IMG/VR virus record: IMGVR_UViG_2061766007_000442
Length of the DNA stretch: 64,000 nt
DNA from: an uncultured virus (IMG/VR IMGVR_UViG_2061766007_000442)
Lineage: Duplodnaviria > Heunggongvirae > Uroviricota > Caudoviricetes
Reading direction: 5' to 3' (one strand)
Position 1 is the stretch's first letter. Each line of letters opens with the position of its first letter. A program made the translations under genes and the position numbers. The notes below the pieces were generated by a model. That model was not told where the DNA came from, did no database searches, and saw only the letters and a list, made by a program, of their open reading frames with translations. Positions 9,809 to 57,829 of this stretch are shown here, one piece after another.

Positions 9809-10093
9809 TTATATACTATCATCCCAATCACTTCATTCCCCAGTAGCATCATCATATATTTTATTCAATTCCCATCTAGGTCTATCATGATGACGTTCAT
9901 CCCAAGGTATCCTACGACACTCTTTATAAAATCTAGGACATTGTGCATTATAAGCAGCTATATCATCTTTATGCTCTATCACTATATGCGGTTCATACAC
10001 AGTTTGATGTGTAGCAAATGTTTCATTAATCCATACTTCTTCATATTCTACTTTCTCTATAAGTTCACCACCACAATACTTACACTTCATCAT
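9809..10093 (-). CDS. hypothetical Zn-ribbon protein (TGA read as Trp near the C-terminus)
   Basis: CKYCG start; TGA at 9833-9835 continues as GE[W]SDWDDSI-TAA; boundaries approximate. Confidence 0.5.
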
Positions 10094-10859
10094 ACTTCTC
10101 CTTATATGCTTCAAGATACCCTTTGGGTAAACTTTGCATATCATACGCTCCAGACTCCAACCACGCCTTAGCTACCTCCGCATCAGGTAAAACTAAATCA
10201 TCTATTATATCTTCATTAACTTCATATTTATTTTCAAGATAAGTTTTAGCAGCTTTAATTTGAACAGGAGCAATTTGATTTACACTATACAGTTCATGAT
10301 AAGTACCATGTTTACCCGGTCTACCTTGTGCTTCATGTCCATAATTAATAAAACCTAATTCTTCCAATGTAGTTAATGCTTGTTGTAACATATTCATATT
10401 TACTGTACTATTACTATAACCTATATCACTTAACAATTCTTTATAAGAAAAGAAATAATTTTCAAAATGCCTATAAGTTATATGCATATTATACTTATTT
10501 AACATATAACAATATACTTTAAAACAAAAATCACTAAGATTGTTTATACAATATTTTGCAGTAGGAACTACCAATTTCAAAAAATTACTACTAACAGGAT
10601 TAATATAATAATATTTATTATCTTCCTCTATAATATTTAAATCTATAAATGTTTGTATTATAATTTTACATTTATATTTACTTAATTTTAAAACTTGTTT
10701 TAATTGTCCTAAAAATTCTTGTTTTTCAATTACTCTTTGATTAGTAGCTAAATCTACAGTACCTAAAAAATTACTTAAAGCCATACCTCTTAAATTATAA
10801 TTTTTTTCTTTCATGTTATCAGGATGAATATCCACCATGATATAATCTTCTTTAACCAT
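10080..10859 (-). CDS. putative replication initiator / winged-helix protein
   Basis: FKVYCYML and ALTTLEELGFINY wHTH-like segments; lies directly beside the iteron array. Confidence 0.5.
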   Translation of the reverse strand: MVKEDYIMVDIHPDNMKEKNYNLRGMALSNFLGTVDLATNQRVIEKQEFLGQLKQVLKLSKYKCKIIIQTFIDLNIIEEDNKYYYINPVSSNFLKLVVPTAKYCINNLSDFCFKVYCYMLNKYNMHITYRHFENYFFSYKELLSDIGYSNSTVNMNMLQQALTTLEELGFINYGHEAQGRPGKHGTYHELYSVNQIAPVQIKAAKTYLENKYEVNEDIIDDLVLPDAEVAKAWLESGAYDMQSLPKGYLEAYKEKYDEV

Positions 10860-10991
10860 ATTTCAACTCCAATTTTCAAAATTAACTATAAAATCGCTAG
10901 CGATTAGCCGAAGGCTAATCGGCTAGCCTTTTTTCTGTCGNNNNNNNNNNNNNNNNNNNNNNNNNNNNNNNNNNNNNNNNNNNNNNNNNNG

Positions 10992-11252
10992 AGCAGACAT
11001 TTTTTTATACTTTAGCAGACATTTTTTTATAGGTTAGCAGACATTTTTTTAATATTAGCAGACATTTTTTGCAGTTGTTATACTTTTCTATACGCCCATA
11101 TCCAAAATTCCCGCCAACCTCAACATATTAGCAGACATTTTTTTACACTTTAGCAGACATTTTTTATATTATCAGACATTTTTTATATAGTTAGCAGACA
11201 AATTTTATATAGTTAGCAGACATTTTTTTACAGGTTAGCAGACATTTTTTGC
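10992..11252. repeat. iteron-like direct repeats, about 10 x TTAGCAGACATTTTTT (period ~21-22 bp); probable origin of replication
   Basis: two blocks of copies (10992-11075 and 11128-11252); palindrome at 10897-10928. Confidence 0.7.
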
Positions 11253-12590
11253 ACCTTACACATAAAACACAAAACCAACCATGCGGCCGTCCATCCAATT
11301 CGATGTCCTCTATCTGAACAATATACTATACCCACTATAATTATTATACCATAAAAAAAGAAAATAGTAAAGCTCCCTTACGGGAGCTTTGTATGCCAAT
11401 CTTTCATATTTCCAAATTCATTTTTAGCTATAAACCATGAAGAAAACATGCAAGCTAAATAATCATCAATTTGAGCTAACTTGCGGTAGCCGCACTCGGA
11501 ACATGTCACAGTCAATATATGTCTAGGAGGTATATCCTTTTGGTTATAGATTTCCCAATGAAAATCCTCCAAGAGTTCCGAAGTATACCCACAATTAGGN
11601 NNNNNNNNNCTCATCAATTTGAGCTAACTTGCGGTAGCCGCACTCGGAACATGTAACAGTCAATATATGTCTAGGAGGTATATCCTTTTGGTTATATATT
11701 TCCCAATGAAAATCCTCCAAGAGTTCCGAAGTATACCCACAATTAGGNNNNNNNNNNTTGCGGGGTTATGCAGGCTCACGGACATTCAATATAGCACTCT
11801 AGTACACGTTCACTAGCAAAAGTCATAGGACAATACATTATTTAACCTCACAATAATTCTTGACTTNNNNNNNNNNACACTTCATCTTCTACTTCCTCTT
11901 CCTGTTCTAACATTTCTTCAGGTAAAACTTCAAGATTAATACCTACATTATTAGCTTCACCACGAATAGCATTAAATGCTACAGAACATCCATAGCCCTG
12001 CGGGGTTATACAGGCTCACGGACATTCGATATAGCACTCTAGTACACGTTCACTAACAAAAGTCATAGGACAATACATTATTTAACCTCACAATAATTCT
12101 TGACTTTTGGACTGAAATCGCCATACTCGATGCTGCGGTAGCCACAGTCAAAACATACGATGCGGCGCATCCAAATGTCATGCTTAATTCCCTTATCCTT
12201 ACTGTAGTAACGACCAACCTTCACTTCAACGTTATGGCTGCCGCANNNNNNNNNNNNNNNNNNNNNNNNNNNNNNNNNNNNNNNNNNNNNNNNNNNNNNN
12301 NNNNCTTCATCATCATAGTCGGGATCACGCGACAATGCGGGCATACACTCAAGGAAGCCGCCCTGCCAGCCATAAGACATACCCTCGATAAAGATAACCG
12401 AGCACGACTCGCCAAACTTGTTGGTAAACTTGGTGCGCTGGAAGTGCGTACCAAACTGATAGACACTGTCATCATACCATCTGATTCCAGCCTTGTCCAG
12501 CATCTTACGCAGCTTCACCATTTCATAAGTCATTTTTGAACCCCTTTCTCTTTATATAATTATTATACTATAAAAGAGAAGTTTAGTCAA

Positions 12591-16905: not shown

Positions 16906-17130
16906 TTAAAAAACCAAATTATCCATTAAACATTCTATATCGCGTTTTTCTATAGGAGTATGAAAATATTCATCTATATATCCTATATCATCTTGATACA
17001 TCCATTCTAATATACCAATAGGAACCCAAATATTTTCATCTTTTTGTTCCATTTTTTCAATTTCACGAACAACACGACGAAAGTTTAATCGACTGAATTT
17101 CATATATCTTATCCTTAAACAAATGTCCAT
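16906..17130 (-). CDS. hypothetical protein
   Basis: ORF coupled to the upstream endonuclease gene. Confidence 0.4.
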   Translation of the reverse strand: MDICLRIRYMKFSRLNFRRVVREIEKMEQKDENIWVPIGILEWMYQDDIGYIDEYFHTPIEKRDIECLMDNLVF

Positions 17131-17755
17131 TCATACCCATATGCTGTTTTACGTTCTTTTTTCGCGGCTCTTCCAATTAATGCCCCTACCGAACGTAATT
17201 TACCTTGACTTTTATCATTATCAATAATTCATTGTGCGGCATCTTCTATTTTAATAAAAGTATATAATACTTCTCCAGTATTTTTATCTATCATTTGTAA
17301 AGATTTACTATTTCGTAAACGTTGATTTGATTGAGTATCTTTAATTCCAGAGTTTATTAATGCTTTTCGTACAGTATCAGTATCACACTCAAATTCTTCT
17401 GCGATTTCTTTTATTAATTTACCTTCTAAATAAGCATTAACTAATTCTTGGTAATTATATCGAACAGTACCGTCACCACCTAAAGTTGCATTATAGCCTT
17501 TGCTATAACTAGAATAATAATTAATTCAATATTGTTCTTGTTGAGACAATAAGCTAACATCACACTGTTCTAATAATTCAATATAAAAATGTTCGACACC
17601 ATATTTGTGCATAGCGTTATATAATGGTCTATGTTGTCTATNNNNNNNNNNNNNNNNNNNNNNNNNNNNNGTTCTTCTATACTAGGTAATAAAGTTTTAC
17701 CTATATAAACTTTATCATTAATATCATTTTTTATTATATAAATATAACCGTACAT
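17115..17755 (-). CDS. GIY-YIG free-standing homing endonuclease with HTH/NUMOD C-terminus (2 TGA=Trp, one gap)
   Basis: GYIY..KVYIG, LYNAMHKYG, EQY[TGA]I, GYN.T.GGDG, KTAYGYEW. Confidence 0.8.
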
Positions 17756-18168: not shown

Positions 18169-19324
18169 TTAATTGCCATAAGTGACATAAATCATATCAC
18201 TAGGTACATTACTTTCAATTACACCTACACCATAAGTAGAAGAGTGAACCATTTTCCCATTACCAACGTAAATTCCAGTATGATGACCATTTACACAAAC
18301 GTCTCCTGGTTGCGGGTTAGATGTTCTATTTCACCCAGAAAAAGTTCCAGTGGTTCCTAATCTAGTACCTTCTTGTCCAGTAAGACAATAAGAAACAAAA
18401 CCAGAACAATCGAAACCAGCAGATGTAGTGCCACCCCAAGAGTAAGGACAACCTATTTTACTATAGGCACGTTCCACTACACTAGAATCTCCATCATAAG
18501 AATAGGAATATGCGGCCGTGCTTGCGTCTGCATTTGAATAGTCTGGAATATAAACTTCTTCGCTATATGTGTATGCGGCAGCAAGCTCCGCATCAATTTC
18601 CATATATCTATTTTCTAGGTCNNNNNNNNNNTACTACACTAGAATCTCCATCATAAGAATAAGAGTACGCGGCCGTGCTTGCGTCTGCATTTGAATAATC
18701 TGGAATATAAACTTCTTCGCTATATGTATATGCGGCAGCAAGCTCCGCATCAATTTCCATATATCTATTTTCTAGGTCTACAATTGTAGCATTAGCTTCA
18801 TCCATCGCTTCTTGTGCGGCAGTTGCTGCTTCTTCAGCTTCTTTTTTAAGTTGTTGCTGTTCTTTTATATCTGTTTGTAATTGAGATTTTAAATTCTGTT
18901 GCTCCGCAATTAAATCATTTGTTTGATTTACAAATGAATTTGAATATTTAAGATTGGTAACAAAAGAATCGAAACTTTGAGTATTTAATAATACTTCAGT
19001 ATAAGGAATATCTCCATGTTTGTAAATATTAATTGCTTGTGTTTTTAGTTTACCTTGGTTGGAAATGATTTTTTGTTCTGTAACCTTGATTTCTTTTTGA
19101 AGTTTTGAAATTTGTTTTTCAGCTTCTTCACCTTTTAATATAGCTTCATTATAGTCATTGGATAATTCATCTAATTTTACTTGATATTGCTCAATCTCGG
19201 CTAAGATTTGTTGTTGCTCTTCAGTAGGATAAGCGTGTGCGGGCGTTGCAAAAATACAAGTTAATATAAAAACCAAGATAAGTGTTATAGAGAAAATGAT
19301 TAATTTCGTCTTTGATTGGCTCAT
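18169..19324 (-). CDS. secreted coiled-coil + NlpC/P60 (C40) peptidoglycan peptidase (TGA=Trp at 18331; duplicated segment at a gap)
   Basis: signal peptide, coiled coil, GCPYSWGG...FDCSGF; after the TGA comes PGD...HTGIYVG..KMVH. Confidence 0.85.
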
Positions 19325-19672: not shown

Positions 19673-20880
19673 TACTTTGTCCTCTAACAAGGCTACATCA
19701 AAAACTATGAGAGACTTTCGCCTTACTCTTGTGTAATGCCCCAATATTCAGCCACGTAGGAGATAAGTCTGAACCATAGGGAGCGACCCCATAGCTTCTT
19801 ACCCCAGCATAATTGCCAGCTCTACCGCGGGATTGCTTACCCGCAACTTTCACCCACTATTCAGAAGATTACATATTTCCAAATATTAAAATACTCATCT
19901 GTTAAAATCGTTGCAGATTTGGGCTACTCGCACACCGACCTTGTCTTATAGGCAACTTACGTCACCGCAACTGCAAACTTCCTTGTTGGTATTCCGAGCT
20001 TTCTCCTACTCGGCACCACCCGGTTAGGTGTTCTCGGTTCTTCCCCACAGGGGCGTCTATTATGGAAGCGACAAGACGTTGCTTTTTGATTGCAAAACAC
20101 TCAAGCGCCATTCTGTTTTCTGTTGGAGTCATTTAACTCCTTCTGCGGATTGGTTACCTACCTCCGCAAAGTCTAAACTTGAAGTATCCCACAAGCCTGT
20201 ATCCGACTCAAGTGACAGAAGCACATGACCGTATAGCCTTACGCATACACATGTTTCACAGAGTTTTTGATATAACCTTGTCAAAGAGCAAATTGAAGGT
20301 TTCACGTTCAACCAGTGCCAACACCTACAAAGCGTCTGGAGCCGCGTATATTTAATGTGCGGAGCGACTTTCCAGCACAGTGCCCGAAGTTTTGCTTGGC
20401 GCGCTACCCAAGGTTCGCATGTACTTATTTTACGAGTCTCACATGCGAGGAAAGTCTCGGGGCATGTTCAAGTACACACCCAAACTATTTCACATTTGCG
20501 GGAACCACCCGCTATATGGGGAACGCAACCTCCCAAAGCCTTTCTACGTGGCTCAATTCGGATGGTTTTTGCCTTCTAGGATAACCAACAACCGCAGCTT
20601 TCCTCTCGTCTCAGCTACGACCCACGCCTCGTGTCGGTGAGTAGACCCAGTATTTTGTCCCGCATACCAGGGGCAGTATTCCCAGGGCTTGCATCCTGTA
20701 TCCACTTGCGGTTACGAGCAGGATATTTCTCGTAGGGAATGAAATTCCCTTTTTGAGACTTCTAACATAAGTTTCTCTCGGTTTGCCGAGTTTTTCTTAT
20801 GAAAGAATGAATCTGGGCACTTGCCGTACTGGATTACCTTATCCATCCCTGAAGTCTCAAAGAGAAAATTTCTTTCTCCT
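19673..20880 (-). ncRNA. large structured ncRNA, GOLLD-like (~1.2 kb)
   Basis: ORF-free GC-elevated tract between a TTGACT..TATAAT promoter (~20895-20930) and a terminator, next to tRNAs; 3' half has TTCTGAATAGTGGGTGAAAG, GGGGTCGCTCCC and GTGGCTGAATATT segments I recall from GOLLD. Confidence 0.7.
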
Positions 20881-20957: not shown

Positions 20958-21032
20958 TGGTAGCTCGTCAGAGATTTGAACTCTGCTCTACGCCTTGAAA
21001 GGGCGTAATCCTAACCACTAGACGAACGAGCC
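20958..21032 (-). tRNA. tRNA-Glu(TTC)
   Basis: cloverleaf, ACGCC-CTTTCAA-GGCGT, CCA. Confidence 0.9.
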
Positions 21033-21033
21033 G

Positions 21034-21108
21034 TGGTGGCGGAGACGGGATTCGAACCCGCATTTAACAGGTTATGAGCCTGTTGAGTCACCATTACTCT
21101 ACTCCGCA
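21034..21108 (-). tRNA. tRNA-Met(CAT), 1:72 mismatch (initiator-like)
   Basis: ACAGG-CTCATAA-CCTGT, CCA. Confidence 0.85.
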
Positions 21109-21198
21109 ATGTCTTTGTATTTAATTTTCAAATTTCTTAACTCTCAATAATATTATTATACCCAAAATTTTTTATTTTGTCTATAAAAATTTTTAACT

Positions 21199-21274
21199 TG
21201 GCTAGTTTGCTTGGACTCGAACCAAGACCTGATGGAACCAGAATCCACCGCTCTACCAATTAAGCTACAAACTA
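21199..21274 (-). tRNA. tRNA-Gln(CTG)
   Basis: GTGGA-TTCTGGT-TCCAT, CCA. Confidence 0.9.
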
Positions 21275-21277
21275 ATA

Positions 21278-21352
21278 TGGCTTCCCGCCTACGACTCGAA
21301 CGTAGAATAAGAGAACCAAAATCTCTTGTGTTGCCAATTACACCAACGGGAA
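21278..21352 (-). tRNA. tRNA-Gln(TTG)
   Basis: AGAGA-TTTTGGT-TCTCT, CCA. Confidence 0.9.
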
Positions 21353-21353
21353 A

Positions 21354-22082
21354 TTATTTACCTTGATGTTGTTGTACAATATTTCTATGACTTTTAAGAA
21401 CTTCGTCTCATGACATATTACGATATTTTTTTACAGAAGGTTTATTAATTCATTTTGGTCTTGGGACTCCTGCATAATGTCTAATTACTGGAGTTATACC
21501 CGTTTTATCAGTAAAAGCAGTACTATTAAAACGTGCAGGCATTTTATGAATGTATCCTTGACATAAACAATTACATACATCTTGTTCTACATAATTAAAT
21601 TTACGTTCGTTTAAAAGTTTAATACATTCATCAGCCTTACCGTTACGTAATTTTTTCAAATTATAATATACAACACCAAAATTACAATAAATTAAACCAT
21701 ACCCGGTACGATGTTGTTCTGGAGTTGATGAAAAATAATAATCAGTTAAATCTATATCCCAAATTTCAGTAGCATCTCGCTCTACTATAAGGTCTGAATC
21801 CAATAGTAATGCAGTATTATAAGGAAGTAGGTGACACATTGCTATGCGGAGCATAGCCATATATGTGAAATTACTTTTCATATTTGGAGTCCCAGCTTTA
21901 AAATATGTTTGGTCACTTACATTGTGACAAATAATCATGTCTGGTAATTCTACTCCCATATCATCATCTTCAATAAAAAAATGGACTTCATCAACCGCAC
22001 TATTAGCTATAAGAGATTTAGCAGATAATATCATATCTTTATATATGTTGCGGGTGCCCGTGTATGCGGCGACTCTTTTCAT
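21354..22082 (-). CDS. GT8-family glycosyltransferase (2 TGA=Trp)
   Basis: LLLDSDL DxD motif, N.GV...NL, EQD; C-terminus aligns with its paralog only if TGA=W. Confidence 0.75.
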
Positions 22083-22084
22083 GA

Positions 22085-22816
22085 CTATTCAACCTTCGCA
22101 TACTGTTCTACTAGCGCATTATGTCTTTCCATAACTTTATCCCAACTCATTTCACGCCATTTAGAAACAACGCCTTTATTTACCCAATTCTTATAAGCAG
22201 TATTAGGGAATGAAATAATAGGCGGTGCATATCTATTTTGAGTAGTGAAACGAGTTGTATTAAACTTAGAAGACATTTCATGTATATAGCCTTGACATAG
22301 ATAATTGCATACATCTTGATGTTTACACGGAAAAAATGCATGATTTAAGACTTCTATACATTCGTCTGCTTTACCTTCCCGCAACTTAGCAAGATTAAAA
22401 TATACAACACTAAAATCACAGTATAAAGCATTATAAGTGCTACGACGTATAATCGGAACACTAGAGAAATAGTAATCTTCTAAATCAATATCTCAAATTT
22501 CTGTGCAATCTTCTTGCGGGATAGCATTATAAGTTAATGCTAATACACTATCTTCTGATAGTTCATGGCATAAAGCCATATACATCATTTGCATATAATC
22601 GTCGTCATCTAACATATTTGGAGTTTCAGGTTGAAAATATGTTTGATTACTGACATTATGAAAAACGATAATATCAGGTGTTTCCTCCCCAATATCATCA
22701 TCTTCAATAAATATATGCACTGTATCAACGGCACTGTTGGCAATTAAAGCCTTGGCAGATGTTAATACGTCTCCGTATATACTACGAGTGCCACAATAAG
22801 CTGCAATTCTATTCAT
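22085..22816 (-). CDS. GT8-like glycosyltransferase paralog lacking the DxD motif (TGA=Trp at 22493)
   Basis: collinear with 21354..22082 across the TGA (TEI[W]DIDL). Confidence 0.7.
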
Positions 22817-22838
22817 ATATTATCCTTAAAAATCTATA

Positions 22839-22914
22839 TGGTGGGCCTGCTCAGACTCGAACTGAGAACCGAAGGATTATGAGTCCTTTGCGCTAACCAT
22901 TGCGCCACAAGCCC
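22839..22914 (-). tRNA. tRNA-Met/Ile2(CAT)
   Basis: AAGGA-CTCATAA-TCCTT, CCA. Confidence 0.85.
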
Positions 22915-22923
22915 TTTATTATT

Positions 22924-23008
22924 TGGTACGGGCGGAGGGATTCGAACCCTCATGCCTTGCGGCGGCAGATTTTGAGTCTGCAGTGTATGCCAATTCCACC
23001 ACGCCCGC
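22924..23008 (-). tRNA. tRNA-Leu(CAA)
   Basis: GCAGA-CTCAAAA-TCTGC, V arm, CCA. Confidence 0.9.
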
Positions 23009-23013
23009 CTATG

Positions 23014-23107
23014 TGGTACCTCGACCTGGACTCGAACCAGGATTGTGCACTAATCTGGTGCTCATACAGCTTATAAGGCTGCCGTTCTGCCATTGAACTA
23101 TCGAGGT
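23014..23107 (-). tRNA. tRNA-Ile(TAT) with long variable arm
   Basis: GCAGC-CTTATAA-GCTGT plus GCAC..GTGC V-arm hairpin, CCA. Confidence 0.8.
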
Positions 23108-23109
23108 TC

Positions 23110-23270
23110 ATGCCATGAAATTACTGCTTGAAGATAGGGGCTCCCTCCGGAAGAAAACCCTTTGCGACTTCCGCAGTTCCCGCACCGGCCGATGCAGGAA
23201 GTCAATTATAATCACAGTGCTCGCAAGCCTGTGACTTACACGGTGAATTAATCCGGTCACCGTGTCCAAT
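23110..23270 (-). ncRNA. candidate multi-hairpin ncRNA of unknown family
   Basis: four consecutive hairpins and complementary loop segments; GC-elevated, no ORF. Confidence 0.45.
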
Positions 23271-23272
23271 AC

Positions 23273-23452: not shown

Positions 23453-23538
23453 ATCAAAACCCTTTCTTCCTCAACCTTATATATATATTATATATTAAAA
23501 ATTGAGTTTTGTCTATAAGAATTCTTTATAAAGATATG

Positions 23539-24015: not shown

Positions 24016-24054
24016 ATTATATCCTCTTTTCAAATCAAAATTCAAATTTAGGAG

Positions 24055-24412: not shown

Positions 24413-24513
24413 AAGATTAAGCTCATACAGGATAGAGGAAACTATCCTTTTTAACTTACAATTATATTATATCTTAAAAATTTTGTTTTGTCTACTAAAT
24501 TTATAAACGAATT

Positions 24514-26638: not shown

Positions 26639-26639
26639 G

Positions 26640-47273: not shown

Positions 47274-48802
47274 ATGGAGATACTAGTAATTATTTTATTC
47301 GTTCTCTGTATTATAAGTTTTTTTGTTGGTCGTAAATTTGCTTCAAAACCAATAGATGATAAAAACGAAGAAATAAAACAAAAAAATGAAGAATTACATC
47401 AACAAGAATTAAAATTAGAATCTAGAATTATTAATTTAGACACAGATATAAAATGAAAAGAACAACAATTAGGTGCGGCAGATGAAAAAATTCAATTAAT
47501 TCAAAAGCAATATGAAGAAAAATTAAAAGTAATTGAAAATACTAAACAACTTGCTGATGAAGAATTAAAACAACGTAAAAAAGTATTAGAAAATGAATTT
47601 GAAAACTATAAATCAGAACAAACAATAATTAAAGGTCAAATTGAAAATCAAATTTGGCAATTACAATCTGATTTAGAATCTTTAAAATCTACTAAAGCTG
47701 CCGCGATTGAAGCTGCAAGAAAAGAACAAGAAATACAAGAGAACAAAGAGTTCTATACTTTACAAATTCCAAGAGAAGAAAAAAGAGATATAGAAATTCT
47801 TGAAGATACTAAAATGAGAATTTCAAAACCTCGTGCAATTGCAATGGTAATATGAACTGCATACTATCAACAGATAGCTAAAACCAAATTTCCTAAAATC
47901 TTAGGTAAACAAGATGTGTGCGGCATCTATAAAATNNNNNNNNNNAATAGCTAAAACCAAGTTTCCTAAAATCTTAGGTAAACAAGATGTGTGCGGCATC
48001 TATAAAATTACAAACCTTGTCACTGGCGAATGTTACATAGGACAGAGCAAGGACGTTCGCAAGCGTTGGTATGAACACATGAAAGCTGCGATAGGTATTG
48101 ATACACCAGTTGGCAATAAATTATATGCGGCAATGCAAGCACAGGGTATTGATAATTTTACATTTGAACTTTTAGAAGAGTGTCAGCCGCAAGANNNNNN
48201 NNNNNNNNNNNNNNNNNNNNNNNNNNNNNNNNNNNNNNNNNNNNNNNNNNNNNNNNNNNNNNNNNNNNNNNNNNNNNNNNNNNNNNNNNNNNNNNNNNNN
48301 NNNNNNNNNNNNNNNNNNNNNNNNNNNNNNNNNNNNNNAGTTACTATTGGAGATAATGATATTGATTTAGCTAAGCGATTATGAAAAGCTGGAACAGAAC
48401 ATCGTAAATATTTGCGTATGATACAAGTATGAGTTGATATNNNNNNNNNNCGCATACTATCAACAGATAGCTAAAACTAAATTTCCTAAAATCTTAGGTA
48501 AACAAGATGTGTGCGGCATCTATAAAATTACGAACCTTGTCACTGGTGAATGTTACATAGGACAAAGCAAGGACGTCCGCAAGCGTTGATATGAACACAT
48601 GAAAGCTGCGATAGGTATTGATACACCGGTTGGTAATAAATTATATGCGGCAATGCAAGCACAAGGTATTGATAATTTTACATTTGAACTTTTAGAAGAG
48701 TGTCAGCCGCAAGATTTAGACAAAAAAGAAAAGTATTTTATAGAGTTATATCATTCTGATTCTCTTGGATATAATGGTAATGCAGGGAAAGGAACTCGAT
48801 AG
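47274..48802 (+). CDS. N-terminal TM + coiled coil + GIY-YIG nuclease (TGA=Trp; allelic duplicates inside)
   Basis: TM segment, long coiled coil read through TGA at 47454, CGIYKITN...YIGQS...RW..H. Confidence 0.7.
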
Positions 48803-49434
48803 TGAAATTTCAAACTATAGATGTTCAAGGATTTTATCCTGCTATGCGGGGTATGCGTAATCCTTTAAAATCTTACAGTAAAGCTGATACTTATCAATAT
48901 CCTGTGGTTACTATTGGAGATAATGATATTGATTTAGCTAAGCGATTATGAAAAGCGGGAACAGAACATCGTAAATATTTGCGTATGATACAAGTATGAG
49001 TTGATATTTGAGCACCTAGATATTTTTGAAGTGAATTTGATACTTATAAAATAGGAACAGTTGCTAATTCAGAATCTACAATGCACAAAATTTTAGAAGA
49101 AGATTTTGATGAAGAAAATTTTGAGTGACCAGATTTTGATTTATTAGATTCAGATATAGAAGAAGTATATCGAGATTATATTGATGTATTGCGTACTATT
49201 AAAAATAGATACCAAGAACATCCCGAATCTCGAAATCATTTTTTAAAAATCTTAAAAGGCATGTTACCAGAATCTTTTATACAAAAGCGTACTATTTGTG
49301 TAAATTATGAAACATTGGCAAATATGTATCATCAAAGAAAACATCATAGGTTGCCGCAATGGTCTAGAGATTTTGTAGATTGAATATATACTTTACCTTA
49401 TAATGAATTAATTACAGGAGATTTTTATGAATAA
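48802..49434 (+). CDS. phage ThyX-like (flavin-dependent thymidylate synthase-like) protein, 6 in-frame TGA=Trp
   Basis: AMRGMRNPL.S, EHRKYLRMIQV[W]VDI[W]APRYF[W]SEFDTYK, NSESTMH, R.HHRLPQW. Confidence 0.75.
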
Positions 49435-49561: not shown

Positions 49562-50494
49562 ATGAAGAGTAATTGGACGAATAATGCACATGTTGAAGGA
49601 TATATTTTTTCTCATAGTCTACAGGCTCGTGTAACGGGAGAGCAGTCAAAGAATCCTGGAACTCCGTTCATTCAGGGTATTCTTAATGTTGCCACCGATG
49701 ATAAGGGTATGAATGTAGTCCCCGTTTCGTTTACTTATGTTACAGAGTATTATTCTCGTAGTGGCAAGGAGAACGCAACTTATAAGGTTCTACAGCAGAT
49801 TATTAATGGTCAGCAGAATACTTATGAGCAGGTAGGTGCATCTGCGCTTAAGGTTCGTATTGATGGTGACGTTGAGATTAATGACTTCCTTGGACGTGAT
49901 GGCAATATGGTAGCTGCCAAGCGTGTACGTGGTAGCTTCTGTCACATTGTTAATGATGTTAATTTTGGTGCAACTTTTGAGACTGATATGCTTATCGCAG
50001 ATGCATCAATGCAGGAAGTCGAAGATGGCGATGACTACATGAATGTTCGTGGTTATGCGTTCAACTTCCGTGGTGACCTACTTCCTGTTACTTATACTAT
50101 TGATAATCCCGATGGTATCAAGTATTTTGAGAATTGTGATATTAGCAACAACAATCCTCTACTTACTCGTGTTTGGGGTAATATTGTTTCCACCACAATC
50201 GAGACAAAGAACGAGGTTGAGTCTGCATTTGGTGGCCCGCAAGTTAATATCACAACTCGTACACTTCGTTCTTGGAAGATTGACGGTTGTGCGGCAGAGC
50301 CTTATGAGTTTGATGATGAGTCAACTCTCACTCGTGATGAGCTAAAGCAGAAGCTCGATGAGCGTGAAGAGCGTGTCGCGGCCGAGAAGAAGCGTGCTGA
50401 AGATTATCAGGCTTCTCGCAACGCTAGCGGTAATGCTTTTGCGGCTCCTGCGAGCAAGGCTTCTGATACTTCCGCAAGCGACTTCAAGTTTTAA
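49562..50494 (+). CDS. putative single-stranded DNA-binding protein
   Basis: position in replication cluster, beta-rich, acidic-aromatic tail (SDFKF). Confidence 0.55.
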   Translation: MKSNWTNNAHVEGYIFSHSLQARVTGEQSKNPGTPFIQGILNVATDDKGMNVVPVSFTYVTEYYSRSGKENATYKVLQQIINGQQNTYEQVGASALKVRIDGDVEINDFLGRDGNMVAAKRVRGSFCHIVNDVNFGATFETDMLIADASMQEVEDGDDYMNVRGYAFNFRGDLLPVTYTIDNPDGIKYFENCDISNNNPLLTRVWGNIVSTTIETKNEVESAFGGPQVNITTRTLRSWKIDGCAAEPYEFDDESTLTRDELKQKLDEREERVAAEKKRAEDYQASRNASGNAFAAPASKASDTSASDFKF

Positions 50495-50506
50495 TAAAAG
50501 GGGGTA

Positions 50507-51595
50507 ATGAAAGTGGCTATTGATCTTCTTTCCATTACCCCGCATGAAGTTAGTCGTGATTTATGCGGATACACGGTAATGTTTTATGGTGAACCCAAAA
50601 CGGGCAAAACCACAATTGCATCTCAATTTCCTAAAGCATTACTCCTAGCCTTTGAAACAGGTTATCTTGCTATTCCCGGTATTATGGCTCAGCCCATTAA
50701 TAAGTGGTCAGAATTTAAGCAAGTTCTAAAGCAACTTAAAGAAGAAGAAGTGCATAAGCAATTCTCTAATATTGTTGTTGATACTGTTGATATTGCATAC
50801 GACCTTTGTGAAAAGTTTATATGCAATCAAGCTGGAGTTAGTGCAATCAATGAAATTCCTTATGGTCAGGGATGGTCTAAGGCTAGTAAAGAGTTTGATG
50901 AAGCTCTGCGCAGCATCCCGCAAATGGGATATGGTTTAATTATGATTAGTCACTCTCAAGATAAGTCATTTGTAGATGAAAATGGTAGAGAGTACAATCA
51001 GATTGTACCTACTCTTGCTAATCGTCCGCGTCTCATTGTAGACCGCATGAGTGATATTATTGGTTTTGCTCATTTCTCGCAGGATGAAGATGAAACCGCT
51101 CATACCACTCTCTATATGCGTGGTACTCCACGTTTCGTAGCNNNNNNNNNNCTCTTTTTCCGCATATTCTTCTTAAATCTATTATAGCATAAAAAAATAG
51201 AGCTGTCAAATAAAAGACCTCCGCAAAGGAGGTCTTTGTCAGAAAAAGTATATAGTTTTTATGACATTAAATTCCCATACCCATTGCATCAACTAAGTCG
51301 TCAACAATAAGAGCAAGTTGCTCNNNNNNNNNNCACAGATAAGCGTACCGAAGCGCATACGCCGCAGCCAGAACTTGATTTTGATGTTCTAATGAAGCAG
51401 TTTAATGATGCGGTTGCTAAGCTTCAAGAAGTCTCTGGTGGAGAGTTTGGTACTAAATGGGCTCCCCGCATTGTTGAGATTACAACAAAGCATTTAGGTG
51501 CCGGTAAAAAGGTTAGTGATATGACTCGTTCTCAAACAGAGCAACTTGCTCTTATTGTTGACGACTTAGTTGATGCAATGGGTATGGGCATTTAA
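50507..51595 (+). CDS. AAA_24/Sak4-like ATPase (locally scrambled by assembly)
   Basis: GEPKTGKT, VVDTVD, ISHSQ. Confidence 0.75.
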
Positions 51596-52028
51596 ATCTT
51601 TTTACATATATCTTACAAAAGACCTCCTTTGCGGAGGTCTTTTATTTGACAGCTCTATTTTTTTATGNNNNNNNNNNTGTATGTGCTTCGGTGCGCTTGT
51701 CTGTAATAAACTTACCTTGTGTCTCTTGAGCCTGCTTATCAATTGCGTCTCCAATAGCATCAACTAAATTTTGATATGTAAATTCAATCGAATCTGGCGT
51801 ATACTTAAAACGAGAACCAGCTACGAAACGTGGAGTGCCACGCATATAAAGAGTGGTATGGGCGGTTTCATCTTCATCCTGCGAGAAATGAGCGAAACCA
51901 ATAATATCACTCATGCGGTCTACAATAAGACGCGGACGATTAGCAAGAGTAGGTACAATCTGATTGTACTCTCTACCNNNNNNNNNNCTTTCCTCATGTT
52001 TATGCTGATTATATCCAAGAGAAGAACA

Positions 52029-52478
52029 AAAAGAATCANNNNNNNNNNATTTTATAGAGAAGATGAAGAATATATACAAGTAGGTAGAAGATATGCTCAC
52101 AAAGAATGTGGCGAGATAAAAGATAAAATACATCAGTTGATGAAAGAAAAATGTGGAGAAAGTTATTCTAAAAATAAAATTGATAGCCAGATAGCAAAGT
52201 TTACAAAAGATGGATATAAGTTAACAGATATTTGGGAAACTATTAATTGGTGGTTCGGAATTAAGAATGAGGATGCAAGTAAAGCAAATGGCGGTATAGG
52301 AATTTTTCCTCATGTTTATGCTGATTATATCCAAGAGAAGAATAAAAAGAATCGGTATAAAGATACACTAGCGGGTCAAAAAATTAGTGATTATATAGAC
52401 GAACCACGCAAACCTGTTACAGTAAGTAGAAAATATTTAAAAAAACCAAAAAGAGTAAAATTGTTTGATTTGAAGTAA
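52029..52478 (+). CDS. hypothetical protein upstream of the helicase (start lost in a gap)
   Basis: RYAHKEC, GIGIFPHVY. Confidence 0.5.
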   Translation, partial: KRIXXXXFYREDEEYIQVGRRYAHKECGEIKDKIHQLMKEKCGESYSKNKIDSQIAKFTKDGYKLTDIWETINWWFGIKNEDASKANGGIGIFPHVYADYIQEKNKKNRYKDTLAGQKISDYIDEPRKPVTVSRKYLKKPKRVKLFDLK

Positions 52479-52490
52479 TGGAGGACTATA

Positions 52491-54023
52491 TTGAGTAAAA
52501 GTAAATATATAGATTCTCCATCTGCGGTACAAGTAATTGGTTGCATCATGCGGCAACCATCTTTAATGAATGACGATGGAAAATATTTCTTTAATGAAGA
52601 TGATTTTCCAAATGATTTTCATAAAACTGTTTTTGGAGCAATTTTTAATTTGCATCAGATGGGTGCAACTGGAATAACGATTAGAACAATTGAAGATTAT
52701 TTGTCTAGTAGACCAGAATCATTAGCAGTTTATAAAACTGGTAAAGGTTCTGAATGGTTGAAGAATGTCTCAAACAGTGCAGATGTTGCAAATTTTGATT
52801 ATTATTATAATAGAATCAAAAAAATGACACTTCTGCGGGAGTACGATAATATTGGGTTAGATGTCAGATGGATATATGACCCAGATAATTTATTTGATGT
52901 AAAAAAGAAACAACAACAAGAAAACTATCTCGATAATTTGTCATTGAATGAAATGGCAAATATGATTGAAGATAGAATTGATAATATCCGCCGCACTTAT
53001 ATAGATAATAGTACAGATGATTCTATTGAAGTTGGAAATGGAATTTTAGAACTCATTGAAGAACTTCAACAGGAACCAGAAATGGGTGCGCCGTTATATG
53101 GACCTTTTATTAACACCGCAGTTAGAGGGATGCGGGAAGGTAAGTTTTATTTAAGGTCAGCCGCAACTGGTGTGGGTAAAACTCGTACCATGATAGCAGA
53201 TGCATGTAACTGTGCATGTGATAAGATATGGATTAATGGACAATGGCACGATAACGGGCCGAAAAGACCAAGTCTTTTTATTAGTACAGAGCTTGAATTA
53301 GATGAAATTCAAACTATGTGTTTAGCATTTTTAGCAAATGTAGACGAAGAACATATCTTGATAGGCGATTATGATTTCGGAGAAAAAGATAGAGTTATTG
53401 AAGCTGCAAAAATTTTGGCAGAGTCGCCTTTATATATTGAAGAGATACCAGATTTCAATTTGAGAGATATTGAAAATATAATCAAAAGAAATATTAGGAT
53501 GCATGGTTGTAAATATATCTTTTATGATTATATTCATACATCTATGAAGATTTTAGAAGAAATATCTCAACGGTCTGGTGGAGTAAGATTAAGAGAAGAT
53601 AATATCTTGTTTTTGCTTAGTGTAAAATTAAAAGATATATGTAATCAATTTGGAGTGTTTATTTTAAGTAGTACACAGTTAAATCAAGATTGGAAATCAT
53701 CAGATATACCAGACCAGAATTTGCTTCGTGGTGCGAAGTCAATGGCAGATAAAATTGATGTTGGTATGATTTTATTAGATGTAACTGAAGATGACAAAGA
53801 AGCATTAGAACCACTGTGTATGGAATCTGGTTTTGCAATGCCCAACGTTAAACTTTCTATTTATAAGAATCGTAGAGGGTCTTATAATAAATGTTATCTT
53901 TGGATGAACGCAGATAAGTCAACTTGTAGATTTAGAGCAGCATTTTGTACAAGTTACAAGTATCAGTTGATTCATATTGCAGACCAACCATTCAATAGTA
54001 TGACTGGAGAAATATATTACTAG
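52491..54023 (+). CDS. dnaB: DnaB-like replicative helicase
   Basis: AATGVGKT, FISTEL, FYDYI, TQLN, LRGAKS.ADK.D, KNRRG. Confidence 0.9.
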   Translation: MSKSKYIDSPSAVQVIGCIMRQPSLMNDDGKYFFNEDDFPNDFHKTVFGAIFNLHQMGATGITIRTIEDYLSSRPESLAVYKTGKGSEWLKNVSNSADVANFDYYYNRIKKMTLLREYDNIGLDVRWIYDPDNLFDVKKKQQQENYLDNLSLNEMANMIEDRIDNIRRTYIDNSTDDSIEVGNGILELIEELQQEPEMGAPLYGPFINTAVRGMREGKFYLRSAATGVGKTRTMIADACNCACDKIWINGQWHDNGPKRPSLFISTELELDEIQTMCLAFLANVDEEHILIGDYDFGEKDRVIEAAKILAESPLYIEEIPDFNLRDIENIIKRNIRMHGCKYIFYDYIHTSMKILEEISQRSGGVRLREDNILFLLSVKLKDICNQFGVFILSSTQLNQDWKSSDIPDQNLLRGAKSMADKIDVGMILLDVTEDDKEALEPLCMESGFAMPNVKLSIYKNRRGSYNKCYLWMNADKSTCRFRAAFCTSYKYQLIHIADQPFNSMTGEIYY

Positions 54024-54031
54024 GAGAATAA

Positions 54032-55105
54032 ATGTCTTACTCAAAAGAACTTGTGAAAGATAATCTTGAGTTAGAAGATATTTATTCTCTCCTAGATTAT
54101 TTTCACGCTGAACCAGAAATGTATAGTAACTATATTGTTGCAAGAACTGTGTGTCATGGTGGAGATTCACATAAGTTATATTATTATGAAAACACTCAAT
54201 TGTTTAAGTGTTATACAGGTTCTTGCGGCACTTTTGATATATTTGAATTAGTTGAAAAAATACAAAATATTAATGATTTAAATAAAGCAATTTATTTTGT
54301 TGTTAATTTTTTCAATCTTCAAAGTCAAATTGATGAAACAGATGACGATTTTTCAATTGAAGATTGGAAAATCTTTAGTCGCTATGAAAAAATTAATGAT
54401 ATAGAGATTGATAATGAAAAAATAGAATTGCCATTATATGATGAATTAATGTTACGATTCTTCCCGCAACCTTTAATTATTCCTTGGGTAAAGGAAGGAA
54501 TAAAGAAAGAAGTTTGTGATTATATGGGAATTAGATATAATCCTGAAAATGGAGTTATATTAATCCCGCACAAAGATGAAAACGGAAGATTGGTTGGTAT
54601 AAGACAACGCACACTTGTCCAAGAGGATGAAAAATATGGTAAATATCGTCCTACGAAATTGCAAAACAAACTTTGTAATCATCCATTGGCGTTTAATCTG
54701 TACGGATTAGATAAAGCAAAAGATAATATAAAAAATATGGGTGCGGCGCTTGTTGTGGAATCTGAAAAGTCTGTCTTGCAATTTATGAGTTATTTTGGTA
54801 CAGCCGCGAATATTTGCGTTGCGGTGTGCGGCAGTTCGTTATCAAAATATCAATTTCAACTACTGTTGGATATAGGTGTAAGAGAAATTATTATAGGTTT
54901 TGATAAAGACTTTGACGAAATAGGAACAGAAGAGTATAATAAAGTTATAGATAAATTACAAAAGATTTATGATAAATATAGTCCTTATGTTAATATTAGT
55001 TTTTTGTTCGACCAAGAAAATAATCAATTAGGATATAAGGATTCTCCGCTTGACTGTGGCAAAGATAAATTCTTATATTTGTTTAGAAATAGGATAGTGT
55101 TATAG
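54032..55105 (+). CDS. dnaG: DnaG-like primase
   Basis: CH..C..C Zn finger, IPH.D..GRLVGIR.R, VESEK, FDKD Toprim motif. Confidence 0.85.
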   Translation: MSYSKELVKDNLELEDIYSLLDYFHAEPEMYSNYIVARTVCHGGDSHKLYYYENTQLFKCYTGSCGTFDIFELVEKIQNINDLNKAIYFVVNFFNLQSQIDETDDDFSIEDWKIFSRYEKINDIEIDNEKIELPLYDELMLRFFPQPLIIPWVKEGIKKEVCDYMGIRYNPENGVILIPHKDENGRLVGIRQRTLVQEDEKYGKYRPTKLQNKLCNHPLAFNLYGLDKAKDNIKNMGAALVVESEKSVLQFMSYFGTAANICVAVCGSSLSKYQFQLLLDIGVREIIIGFDKDFDEIGTEEYNKVIDKLQKIYDKYSPYVNISFLFDQENNQLGYKDSPLDCGKDKFLYLFRNRIVL

Positions 55106-56883
55106 TGATTTACAAACTTTTTAATGAACCAAAATATTCCGGCCTTACGCAAATTTTAATTAATCGTGGGCTATTATATGATGAATTAGATACTTGGATG
55201 TACGCAGATGGACGGCAAATATATGACGAAGATTTATTTGGGCGAGAAATGGTTGATAAACTCGTTCAAAGAGTAATTCAAGCATATAAAAATAAAGATA
55301 ATATTACTGTTATTGTAGATAGTGATGCCGATGGTTTTACTTCTGCCGCGATTTTTATTAATTACCTATACGCTCAATGGCCCGAATATGCAAGTACACA
55401 TATAGATTATATTCTCCATACGGGCAAACAACATGGCTTGGCAGATTGCTATGAAGATATTTTAAAAGACCATTGGACTAATTTGGTTGTTATTCCTGAC
55501 GCTGGTACAAATGATGTTGAAGAAATGCAAGCTCTTTTAGATAATGGTATAGATGTTATTTGCATGGATCACCATCATTCTGACGTTTGGAATAAAAATG
55601 CAATTATAATCAATAATCAGATTTGCGACTATCCCAATAAGAGTTTAAGTGGCGCAGGTGTAACTTGGCATATGTGTCGTGCAATAGATTCTTATCTCTC
55701 TAATGGAGGAAGATATTTTGAAGTTAAATGTCATTCTGTTGATCTATTAGATTTAGCTGCTCTTGGAAACCTATCTGATATGATGGATTATCGTTCATTA
55801 GAAACTAGAGCTATTATTAATTTAGGTTTAAAAAATATTAAGAACCCATTTTTCTATTATATGTGTGAGAAAAATAAATTTAGCATTGATAAAATGGGCG
55901 GCATTAATTATATGTCAATTGCATTTTATGTTACACCTTTTATTAATGCAATTGTTCGTTCTGGCACGCCAGATGAAAAAGATATGATTTTTAAATCATT
56001 TTTACAAATGTATGCCTTTGAAGAAATTCCTAGCGGTAAACGTGGTCATAAGGGAGAGTTAGTTCCTAGAGTAGAAGAAGCAGTAAGGATAGCTACAAAT
56101 GTCAAAGCAAGACAAACAAAACTTCAAGACACTACAATGGCTTTACTCGAACAAAAGATTAATCAAAATAATTTGTTGGACAATGCTATTCTTATTTTAC
56201 AATGCGAACCCGGAGAAGTAGAAAAGAATCTCGCAGGACTTGTAGCAAACAAAATTCAGGCTAAATATCAGCGTCCTTGTTTAGTTTTAATTAAAACAAA
56301 AACTAAAGATGATAATGAGATATTTTATCGTGGTAGCGCCCGCAATTATAATATGTCTGAAATTCAAGATATGCGGCAGTTATGTGAAGATACTGGATTA
56401 GTAGAATATGCACAAGGACATGAATCTGCTTTTGGTATTTCAATTCCAGAATCAAAATTTGAGGAGTTTATAGAAAACACAAATGAAAAGTATAAAAATG
56501 TTCCTAATAGTCCCATTTATTGGGTGGATTTTATTTGGACTTTGAATAGCATGGACAAGAACACAATATTAACAATAGCAGACTCAAAAGATTATTGAGG
56601 ACAAGAAATTAGTGAACCTTACGTTTGTATTGAAAACTTAGACATGAACCAGGTCCAGATTCAAGGATTGTCAATGGATAAACATCCTACCATTAAAATT
56701 CATTTGAATAATGGAGTAGATATTATGAAGTTTAAATCTTCACAAGAAGAATTAGAAGAATTTGAACAGAAAAATAAAATTTTAACAGCTATTTGTCGTT
56801 GCAATAAAAATGAATGGATGGGTAATGTAACGCCGCAGCTAATCATTGAAGATTATATACTTAGAGAGGAATGGGTTTTTTAA
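55105..56883 (+). CDS. recJ: RecJ-like DHH exonuclease (TGA=Trp at 56596)
   Basis: DSDADG, DHH, GSAR, GHESAFG; continues Y[W]GQ..SEP. Confidence 0.9.
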
Positions 56884-57122
56884 TGGATTATGATGAAATG
56901 TATCAGCCTTTAATTGATTTTATTGCTGAAAAAAACGCCAGCGTTCTTTTTCTACAAGGAGAAGCGGACGAATCTAATCAAGTTATGTTTTATCTTCCCA
57001 GAAAGGTAGAAGGAGATAAGGATACTCAAACTCTATATGTAGAATTTGATTTACCCAATGCTATGATTGATAAAGTAATTGAAAATCAACAAAAACTGCA
57101 TGAACTCTGTGCTTCTTTCTAA
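56883..57122 (+). CDS. hypothetical protein
   Basis: coupled ORF. Confidence 0.5.
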   Translation: MDYDEMYQPLIDFIAEKNASVLFLQGEADESNQVMFYLPRKVEGDKDTQTLYVEFDLPNAMIDKVIENQQKLHELCASF

Positions 57123-57124
57123 TT

Positions 57125-57829
57125 ATGAAGTTAGAACTATATAATATAGAATCGTCTTTAGAGTTTATTAATCAATTAATAAGTGAAAATGAAAAATGTG
57201 TTATTATTTCTGACCCACCTTATAATGTAAAGTATCATTATAAAGATTATCATGATAATAAACCATTAGCACAATATGTCCAAGAGACTAGTGAAATATT
57301 GATTCGAGACGATATTCCATGCGTGGTATTAGCATATCCTGAAATTGTATATCAATTTTCTATATATAGACAAAAAACTCCTACAAAAATTTGTACGTGG
57401 GTATATAATGCCAATACTGCGCATCAACATAGAAATATAGCATATTATAATATTAAACCAAATTTCAATTTAGTGCGGCAGCCTTATAAAAATCCTAACG
57501 ATGCCCGCATCAAAAAATTAATAGCAGAGGGTAGTAAAGGTGCAAAACTTTATGATTGGTGAGAATTCCAACAAGTTAAAAATGTTTCTGCAGAAAAAAC
57601 TGCACATCCATGTCAAATACCTGAAAAGGTTATGCGAAATGTATGTGGAATCATACCCGACACAGGATGAACTGTAATTGACCCATTCTGCGGCGCAGGT
57701 TCAACAGCGATAGGATGCTTAAAAGCTAATGAAGATAGAGAAGAAGAAGTTTTTGTTAAATTTATCGGTATAGATATTACACAAGAATATTTAGATATTA
57801 CAACAGATAGAGTTCAAAAGTATAATTAA
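57125..57829 (+). CDS. beta-class N6-A/N4-C DNA methyltransferase (2 TGA=Trp)
   Basis: SDPPY; after the TGA come HPCQIP and IDPFCGAGST (motif I). Confidence 0.85.

Follow-up and report, generated by a model that had tools for sequence, protein, structure and literature searches.

The DNA analysed here, called the window, is a stretch of 64 kb from an uncultured virus of the Caudoviricetes (IMG/VR record IMGVR_UViG_2061766007_000442). Several of its genes carry TGA in frame. In this phage, TGA encodes tryptophan rather than serving as a terminator, and its use is gene-specific. An earlier note, made from the sequence of the window, had read the in-frame TGAs as a genome-wide recoding that includes the replication genes. 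It had also suggested that the host itself reads UGA as tryptophan, or that the reassignment is recent. The most probable explanation, at roughly 70%, is a phage of a standard-code Gram-positive host in which decoding is switched during infection, and which belongs to the published 'Agate' phages or stands beside them. The window is collinear with one half of its closest relative (G001, an IMG/VR contig of 130.6 kb with 90% completeness by CheckV) at 70–85% nucleotide identity. It is best explained as the non-structural half of a low-GC phage of virulent type with a genome of about 130 kb. Two other relatives are referred to below: G002, which is recoded, and G005, which uses the standard code.

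Reading of TGA in the window

All of the in-frame TGAs listed in the earlier note were found in frame, in the contexts given for them, including the six of the ThyX-like gene (Table 1). Matches to Pfam and PHROG families span these codons: phrog_6721 is matched over residues 2–206 of 210, RecJ_OB over 494–583, N6_N4_Mtase over 90–226, and NlpC_P60 over 51–133. Several of the TGAs are shared with G001, and the protein is conserved downstream of them. The standard code (code 11) truncates the lysin candidate, both GT8 genes, RecJ, the methylase, and the ThyX-fold gene. Therefore, the contig and its relatives need to be translated with code 4.

The residue is indicated by the homologs. All of the five window sites that can be aligned to G005 face tryptophan; among them are residue 52 of the GIY-YIG part of the gene at 47274–48802, residue 29 of the fragment at 17115–17612, and the TGA at 23988. 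At residue 498 of RecJ, TGG is found in 24 of the 28 aligned loci and TGA in the other four. Residues 66, 76, and 194 of the ThyX-like protein face TGG in 10, 12, and 15 of 18–19 aligned loci, with one non-Trp codon each. Residue 146 of the methylase faces the tryptophan of a conserved D/N-V-W motif in the PDB entries 9c3u, 8urk, and 1eg2. The TGAs of the GT8 paralogs were said to align with TGG in the other copy, and all three do so there or in the G001 orthologs. The more general statement that the TGAs stand at conserved tryptophan positions holds for RecJ residue 498, ThyX-like residues 66, 76, and 194, and methylase residue 146. It does not hold for five sites in variable columns, namely the NlpC/P60 site, methylase residue 182, and ThyX-like residues 50, 70, and 109. 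In the case of the lysin, the alignments with PDB entries continue through the TGA to the region of the catalytic histidine.

The homologs were also checked for residues other than tryptophan at the TGA sites, and tryptophan dominates (5/5 against G005; TGG in the majority in the RecJ and ThyX-like columns). The residues of G005 that face TGA are tryptophan in 21 of 44 cases for G001 and in 25 of 62 for G002, followed by tyrosine, phenylalanine, and leucine. Those that face TGG are tryptophan in 58/93 and 56/104 cases, and their profile mirrors that of TGA. It is hardly credible, therefore, that TGA stands for another residue (glycine as in code 25, cysteine, or selenocysteine) or is bypassed. 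One RecJ column, in which the TGA of relatives faces GGA in the window (12 loci), could suggest it, as could the tRNA(UCA) of G002, which has a long variable arm and is labelled SeC by ARAGORN. However, the residues facing TGA and those facing TGG have the same profile (tryptophan first, then tyrosine and phenylalanine), and 89 of the 140 RecJ TGAs in the relatives face tryptophan. Glycine is found at that single RecJ column while tryptophan dominates, which speaks against code 25, and up to 25 TGAs per gene are incompatible with selenocysteine.

The quality of the assembly has to be considered here. The window contains 61 N runs (2580 bases; for example 18622–18631, 27717–27726, 47936–48450, and 59879–59888), the flanks of which are often duplicated, and reading frames are broken at the gaps. 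The duplicated flanks indicate that the window is a scaffold whose joins were left unmerged. It is because of these joins, and not for biological reasons, that the lysin, the GIY-YIG endonuclease, GyrA, and DNA polymerase III alpha (PolIIIα) look split or frameshifted. The GIY-YIG gene at 47.9–48.8 kb is present as overlapping copies, and the tRNA-Arg(ACG) gene has its 5' half (27349–27377) present a second time at 27727–27756. Two TGAs in the tail of the open reading frame (ORF) at 57909–59963 (59904 and 59916) were rejected as out-of-frame junk after an N gap, and those in the ORF tails at 45676, 45697, and 25783 as junk after N gaps. Such gaps, duplicated flanks, and broken frames are what would be expected if the in-frame TGAs were artefacts, whether through errors of sequencing or assembly or as pseudogenes in a scaffold of poor quality. 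This is extremely improbable, since the curated TGAs lie in uninterrupted sequence at conserved tryptophan columns, and many of them recur codon for codon in independent contigs (G001, L001/L002, and others).

Forty genes or gene fragments of the window were curated, with their frames anchored on G001 orthologs and family hits. None of them needs TGA as a stop. The 21 TGA-free genes with natural ends all stop at TAA or TAG, in agreement with what the earlier note had reported for intact genes. TGA makes up 26 of 110 stops (24%) in G005, which gives a P value of about 0.003 for the 21/21 of the window. The tryptophan codons of the curated set are 118 TGG and 22 TGA. TGG is thus the majority codon and, as had been observed before, still common.

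A comparison of coding density under codes 4 and 11 had been proposed as a check. In the window itself it is not discriminating: the density is 0.755 with code 11, 0.867 with code 4, 0.858 if TAG is taken as sense, and 0.889 if TAA is, in a sequence with 61 N gaps, mostly TGA-poor genes, and a GC-richer left 10 kb. The check gave a clear answer in the relatives. From code 11 to code 4, the density rises from 0.72 to 0.90 in G001, where the number of ORFs of at least 300 amino acids (aa) rises from 17 to 37, and from 0.69 to 0.89 in G002, while G005 stays at 0.89. TAG as sense reaches 0.77 in G001 and 0.75 in G002.

Uneven use of TGA among genes

The replication and nucleotide block of the window (13 genes, 5550 codons; GyrB, GyrA, DnaB, primase, PolIIIα, AAA_24, NrdD, guanylate kinase, and others) has one TGA against 59 TGG, and the lone TGA belongs to RecJ. 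In the remaining 27 curated genes (4965 codons), 21 TGA stand against 59 TGG (Fisher p = 3e-5). The genome-wide recoding that was thought to include replication genes is therefore not borne out. The TGA-bearing genes are the homing endonucleases, the methylase, the ThyX-fold gene, the GT8 genes, the lysin, and, less so, RecJ. The carriers located in the replication region at 41–64 kb are accessory or mobile genes (GIY-YIG homing endonuclease, methylase, and ThyX-fold gene). On the minus strand, eight genes at 28.0–37.6 kb have no TGA and 24 TGG, whereas 12 genes at 9.8–24.1 kb, beyond the tRNA array and including the lysin and GT8 genes, have 9 TGA and 27 TGG (Fisher p = 0.008).

Clade-wide TGA/TGG counts were made on distinct orthologs in 77 loci (about 50 relatives), which are related sequences, so that p-values are nominal and overstate independence. 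The counts are 3/580 for PolIIIα, 0/94 for h49562, 7/179 for DnaB, 12/115 for primase, and 27/30 for guanylate kinase. RecJ, which is adjacent to PolIIIα, is the clade-wide TGA hotspot of the replication block, with 140 TGA and 301 TGG in 52 distinct orthologs and from 0 to 12 TGA per gene. The clade is of mixed code, and 13 of 33 IMG/VR loci have no in-frame TGA.

In the structural blocks of G001 and G002, TGA accounts for 62–69% of the tryptophan codons, against 27–30% elsewhere, a figure that is inflated by spurious ORFs in the greedy ORF set. The tape-measure and large tail genes of G001 have TGA/TGG counts of 19/11, 25/9, 13/4, and 11/3, its sigma factor has 7 TGA and 2 TGG, and its portal/capsid-like block has no TGA. 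The TGA-rich genes in the replication half of G001 are GIY-YIG and HNH homing endonucleases. Endonuclease genes of these two types in G001 (10458–11240, 71923–72768, 78137–78973, 91811–92527, and 94420–95211) interrupt or separate the terminase, PolIIIα, RecJ, and GyrA/GyrB genes. RecJ and gyrase are uninterrupted in the window; the endonuclease content thus differs between close relatives.

The uneven pattern could also arise without any regulatory role. With a standard-code host and a suppressor, TGG would drift to TGA under AT pressure wherever incomplete read-through is tolerated, so that TGA would stand in accessory, mobile, low-demand genes and be purged from genes needed early or in quantity. 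We regard this as an unlikely explanation, but a serious one. At homologous sites of the window and G001, roughly 14 TGAs are common to both and eight window TGAs face TGG in G001, in a tally made by hand from the per-gene rows that includes a few spurious or paralogous ORFs. These flips agree with drift, as does the TGA load, which differs widely among lineages (0 to 12 in RecJ). The TGA-free portal/capsid-like block is a late one and fits avoidance in highly expressed genes better than pure timing. On the other hand, which genes are loaded with TGA and which are spared is the same in many lineages. The TGA excess of the G001 sigma factor and of the tail genes, two to three fold over TGG in the latter, is more than tolerance. 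In the accessible part of their preprint, Borges et al. report a statistical preference for TGA in the genes of an intron endonuclease, of a tail protein, and of a membrane protein from the lysis cassette (bioRxiv 10.1101/2021.08.26.457843).

The same comparison bears on the suggestion of a recent reassignment. It is plausible insofar as both codes coexist in the clade and TGA and TGG are exchanged between the window and G001. However, many TGAs are common to the two, and the recoding is therefore older than their split.

Decoding agent and host

The genes presumably needed first (gyrase, DnaB, primase, and PolIIIα) are legible to a standard-code ribosome. The same is true of the block beside the presumed origin and of the small genes in the left 10 kb of higher GC content, which have a clean reading in code 11. 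According to the preferred explanation, a phage of a standard-code host with a decoding switch during infection, release factor 2 (RF2) would at first terminate at TGA and the TGA-bearing genes would give truncated products. As a suppressor supplied by the phage accumulates, TGA would be read as tryptophan and these genes would be made in full. The suppressor activity could be supplied by a tRNA(UCA) like that of G002, or by a non-canonical agent.

The tRNA(UCA) of G002 is 97 nucleotides (nt) long and lies at 76722–76818 in a tRNA array, adjoining tRNA-Glu and tRNA-Met. Besides its long variable arm, it has an A1-U72 pair and the discriminator G73. In E. coli, A1-U72 and G73 are identity elements for tryptophanyl-tRNA synthetase (TrpRS). 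In G001, a degenerate remnant of the 3' half of such a tRNA(UCA) is found at 115350–115436, yet G001 contains hundreds of in-frame TGAs. The window has a homing endonuclease at the place that corresponds to the remnant.

Several observations weigh against the switch, or against a strict form of it. No tRNA(UCA) or tRNA-Trp was found in the window by ARAGORN, Rfam, or relaxed ARAGORN, no Pfam release factor domain among the 48 window ORFs scanned, and no TrpRS in the window; the lack of a tRNA-Trp(UCA) and of a release factor in the window had already been pointed out in the earlier note. The closest relative G001, although 90% complete, likewise has no tRNA(UCA), tRNA-Trp, release factor, or TrpRS. 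In addition, relaxed ARAGORN gave no UCA, CUA, UUA, or CCA anticodon in the window, G001, or G005, and five relatives have no RF-1 domain and no class Ib synthetase gene. The relatedness of the loci behind the clade-wide counts belongs among these points, as do the RecJ, guanylate kinase, and some primase and DnaB orthologs of relatives that carry TGA; the statement that replication genes are in standard code is a strong tendency and not a rule. Because 24% of the G005 stops are TGA, the published route via loss of TGA stops is not visible there. The timing of expression is deduced from the position and function of the genes. Neither IMG/VR, where the best RecJ match is 83% over a partial alignment and 78% over the full length, nor the Joint Genome Institute (JGI) metagenomes, where the best match is 90% amino-acid identity in RecJ on a 26 kb contig, yielded a near-identical contig. 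Finally, a search for the host with the NlpC/P60 domain in 185,579 species genomes gave best matches of 35–44% identity in many Gram-positive genera of Bacillota and Actinomycetota and in one 'Tenericutes' metagenome-assembled genome (MAG), and no host was assigned.

The decoding agent may be encoded in the other half of the genome, may be non-canonical, or may act on host factors. A further reading, which we consider doubtful, is that the lineage of the window and G001 decodes hundreds of UGA codons as tryptophan without any canonical suppressor tRNA, release factor, or TrpRS, together with a gating of single genes in one operon. In that reading, the agent could be a tRNA-like gene of non-canonical type, or else a phage factor could put the RF2 of the host out of action so that the tRNA-Trp(CCA) of the host reads UGA. 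If it is true, the TGA-loaded RecJ, guanylate kinase, and ThyX-fold enzyme between the TGA-free PolIIIα and primase would be a translational timer within one operon.

Two odd, highly conserved tRNA-like elements are present within the tRNA array. In the three TGA-recoded genomes, the variable region of a tRNA(UAU) is extended by about 20 inserted nt with a separate hairpin (91–94 nt in total); this tRNA lies at 23014–23107 (minus strand) in the window, 109341–109432 in G001, and 76023–76113 in G002. Its counterpart in the standard-code G005 (122694–122770) is an ordinary one of 77 nt. It was rejected as a hidden carrier because it has no UCA anticodon. A degenerate tRNA-like element at 27766–27836 (minus strand; 107098–107171 in G001) has a CUU-type anticodon loop on a stem with mismatches and lacks the T-loop consensus; it was missed by ARAGORN and scores 41.7 bits with Rfam. 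The window and G001 agree at 73 of its 74 positions, against an identity of only 70–85% for the genomes, and a similar odd element is found at 79494–79567 in G002. It was rejected as a suppressor on account of its CUU-type loop. The half tRNA at 27727–27756 was rejected as well, being the copy of the tRNA-Arg(ACG) 5' half beside an N gap. The array also includes a transfer-messenger RNA (tmRNA) at 26884–27208 (minus strand; Rfam 82 bits, ARAGORN tag GEFEYALAA), with a gap of 38 N at 26935–26972.

Concerning the host, all of the 161 phage records that match the DnaB of the window are Bacillota phages, at less than 40% identity. Matches at the nucleotide level are to Enterococcus, Staphylococcus, Bacillus, and Enterocloster phages, and the window encodes an NlpC/P60 peptidoglycan hydrolase. 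The best reading from these results is a walled, Gram-positive host of Bacillota type, which presumably uses the standard code. The inference in the earlier note that the host itself reads UGA as tryptophan is unsupported, because the replication core is precisely what is spared of TGA. A code-4 host, whose code the phage would share without need of a switch, is very improbable. It would agree with the absence of a suppressor tRNA, release factor, or TrpRS from the window and G001, with TGA never being needed as a stop, and with one of the 80 lysin-domain matches kept, which is from an uncultured 'Tenericutes' gut MAG at 43% identity. However, a phage adapted to such a host should use TGA in all gene classes, and TGA accounts for 22 of 140 tryptophan codons overall and 1 of 60 in the replication block, at a GC content of 35%. 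The gene-specific pattern is kept across about 50 relatives, G002 has a tRNA(UCA) of its own, and standard-code relatives (G005 and others) have the same gene order and the same kind of host-related genes. A peptidoglycan hydrolase is encoded by the phage, whereas classical code-4 Mollicutes have no cell wall. High percentages of recoded genes are given by Borges et al., in the accessible part of the text, only for code-25 phages on code-25 hosts (bioRxiv 10.1101/2021.08.26.457843). Taken together, gene-specific TGA use, the peptidoglycan hydrolase, the standard-code relatives, and the tRNA(UCA) of G002 argue for a standard-code Bacillota host and a code switch driven by the phage.

Gene layout and relation to known recoded phages

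The window has two arms that diverge near 38 kb, where the GC skew changes sign and has its minimum (Table 1). The minus-strand arm (9.8–37.6 kb) carries SpoU, a GIY-YIG fragment, the lysin with PcsB-type coiled coil and NlpC/P60 domain, two GT8 paralogs, 18 tRNAs and the tmRNA, a TROVE/Ro60-like gene, and a metallophosphoesterase. The replication block on the plus strand (41 to 64 kb; Pfam and PHROG assignments) consists of GyrB, GyrA, ligase fragments, the coiled-coil/GIY-YIG endonuclease, the phrog_6721 gene, AAA_24, DnaB, primase, RecJ, the N6/N4 methylase, PolIIIα, guanylate kinase, and NrdD.

Table 1. Features of the window with their tryptophan codons (coordinates are window positions).
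Feature	Position	Strand	TGA and TGG codons	Remarks
Hypothetical ORF	9809–10144	-	TGA 9835	TGA 7 codons before TAA; could be sense or true stop; neighbouring G001 ORF without real similarity
GIY-YIG homing endonuclease fragment	17115–17612	-	TGA 17528 (EQY[TGA]I), 17231	PHROG
Lysin candidate, PcsB-type coiled coil and NlpC/P60	18169–19537	-	TGA 18333	Pfam; TGA upstream of NGHH motif; split by N gap with duplicated flanks
18 tRNA genes and tmRNA	20958–27989	-		ARAGORN, Rfam; no anticodon UCA or CCA
Two GT8-like paralogs	21354–22816	-	TGA 21452, 21410, 22495	
Hypothetical gene	23539–24084	-	TGA 23988	
Eight genes including TROVE/Ro60-like and metallophosphoesterase	28042–37562	-	0 TGA, 24 TGG	Adjoining the GC-skew switch
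Hypothetical gene	38991–39308	+	One TGA, common with G001	Protein conserved downstream of TGA
GyrB and GyrA	41221–45344	+	0 TGA, 13 TGG	
Coiled-coil and GIY-YIG homing endonuclease	47274–48802	+	TGA 47454, 47853, 48587	Pfam; broken and partly duplicated by three N gaps (duplicated translations); ortholog G001 86744–87676 (310 aa), 3 TGAs in common
Predicted ThyX-fold gene (phrog_6721)	48802–49434	+	6 TGA (48949, 48997, 49009, 49027, 49126, 49381), 1 TGG	All TGAs in frame; most TGA-biased window gene
phrog_2367 gene, AAA_24, hypothetical, DnaB, primase	49562–55105	+	0 TGA, 16 TGG	
RecJ-like exonuclease	55105–56883	+	TGA 56596 (aa 498, Y[TGA]GQ), 9 TGG	Pfam DHH, DHHA1, RecJ_OB
N6/N4 DNA methyltransferase	57125–57829	+	TGA 57560 (aa 146), 57668 (aa 182)	Pfam; 57668 directly before DPFCGAGS; no ortholog at corresponding place in G001
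DNA polymerase III alpha	57909–61902	+	0 TGA, 16 TGG in true frames	Two frames across N gap 59879–59888

The product of the most TGA-biased gene matches phrog_6721, the function of which is not annotated, over its full length. Its AlphaFold model (predicted local distance difference test, pLDDT, 77) has ThyX 3ah5 as the best Foldseek match (E 5e-7, TM 0.65). Foldseek gave 132 matches to the PDB at E ≤0.001, and all of the 30 rows listed are ThyX/flavin-dependent thymidylate synthase entries. The protein is thus predicted to have the ThyX fold. The Pfam Thy1 score is 17.1 bits against a cut-off of 24.8, and three of nine family members match weakly. The RHR-type motif is the canonical ThyX motif, and none was seen among the invariants of the family alignment.

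Several other features of the window are recorded here. Positions 1–9800 have a GC content of 42–47%, against 30–38% in the remainder, with many duplicated stretches around N gaps. At least four paralogous small ORFs of winged helix-turn-helix type (223–576, 6521–6904, 7946–8368, and 8821–9225) have a C-terminal motif in common and all stop at TAG, in at least two cases followed by evident GC-rich hairpins. The same region contains a HAD-type nucleotidase-like ORF (1552–2022) and an exonuclease-like ORF (from 4426). In the stretch from the tRNA array to the lysin, there is a full-length ROOL RNA at 19693–20278 (minus strand), which scores 342 bits with Rfam RF03087 (gathering score 99); the region is kept in G001 at 74% nucleotide identity. 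The TROVE/Ro60-like gene at 31681–32463 (minus strand) has a Pfam TROVE match of 5e-12 and a weak Ro60 vWA match. As a Y RNA partner, only sub-threshold YrlA-like matches (23 bits) that overlap nearby tRNAs were obtained, and none is established. The lysin has no ortholog in G001, where the same place holds a different, Trp-rich gene of 369 aa (113486–114595), which suggests a swap of lysis genes between close relatives.

Among known systems, the Agate phages are the closest. In the accessible text of the preprint, they have genomes of about 127 kb and recode TGA to tryptophan, with in-frame TGA in structural and lysis genes and the replication machinery in standard code, and their clades mix codes. 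TGA is preferred by the endonuclease of a group I intron that lies in an early gene, the hosts are predicted to be standard-code Firmicutes or Bacteroidetes, and a tRNA(UCA) is detectable in only 35% of code-4 phages (bioRxiv 10.1101/2021.08.26.457843). The window and its relatives agree with each of these points, as far as the accessible text goes. Their genomes are of similar size (130.6 kb for G001, 125.5 kb for G002, and 125–134 kb for the relatives), code-4 and standard-code members occur in one clade, and a suppressor tRNA is present only in some members. Recoding affects late genes and leaves the replication machinery essentially in standard code, a TGA-rich homing (intron) endonuclease stands among the early genes, and the GC skew suggests bidirectional replication. 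By the published description, the phage probably belongs to the Agate phages or sits next to them; the window is without the terminase used for the Agate tree. Two differences from that description were noticed. In the replication block described here, TGA recurs in RecJ, guanylate kinase, and a ThyX-fold gene, and the standard-code relative G005 has 24% TGA stops, against 2.7% in the close relative of Agate.

Other recoded phages are more distant. The Jade phages, as described in the accessible text of the same preprint, also recode TGA to tryptophan in phages of Firmicutes. However, they have genomes of about 200 kb and a code-change module of tRNA(UCA), TrpRS, and RF1 that is written in standard code, whereas no TrpRS or RF1 was found in the five relatives or the window. 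The crAss-like and Lak phages (code 15) resemble the present case in that a stop codon is recoded preferentially in late genes on standard-code hosts. They differ in that TAG is recoded to glutamine and the hosts are Bacteroidota, and TAG as sense fits G001 and G002 far worse than code 4. The viruses of Mycoplasma and Spiroplasma and the code-25 phages of Absconditabacteria also have in-frame TGA read as an amino acid. Those phages share the code of the host and are expected to be recoded throughout, whereas TGA is here a minority, gene-specific tryptophan codon. In addition, the residue is tryptophan and not the glycine of the code-25 phages, and a peptidoglycan hydrolase is carried.

TGA-to-tryptophan recoding in gut phages is already known, and the present case is one more example of a published pattern; no long-standing question is opened by it. 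Of possible interest to specialists are the TGA load of RecJ (140/301) beside PolIIIα (3/580) and the lack of a recognisable suppressor in a relative that is 90% complete. In that pattern, a phage whose host presumably uses the standard code recodes a stop codon and leaves its early replication core readable.

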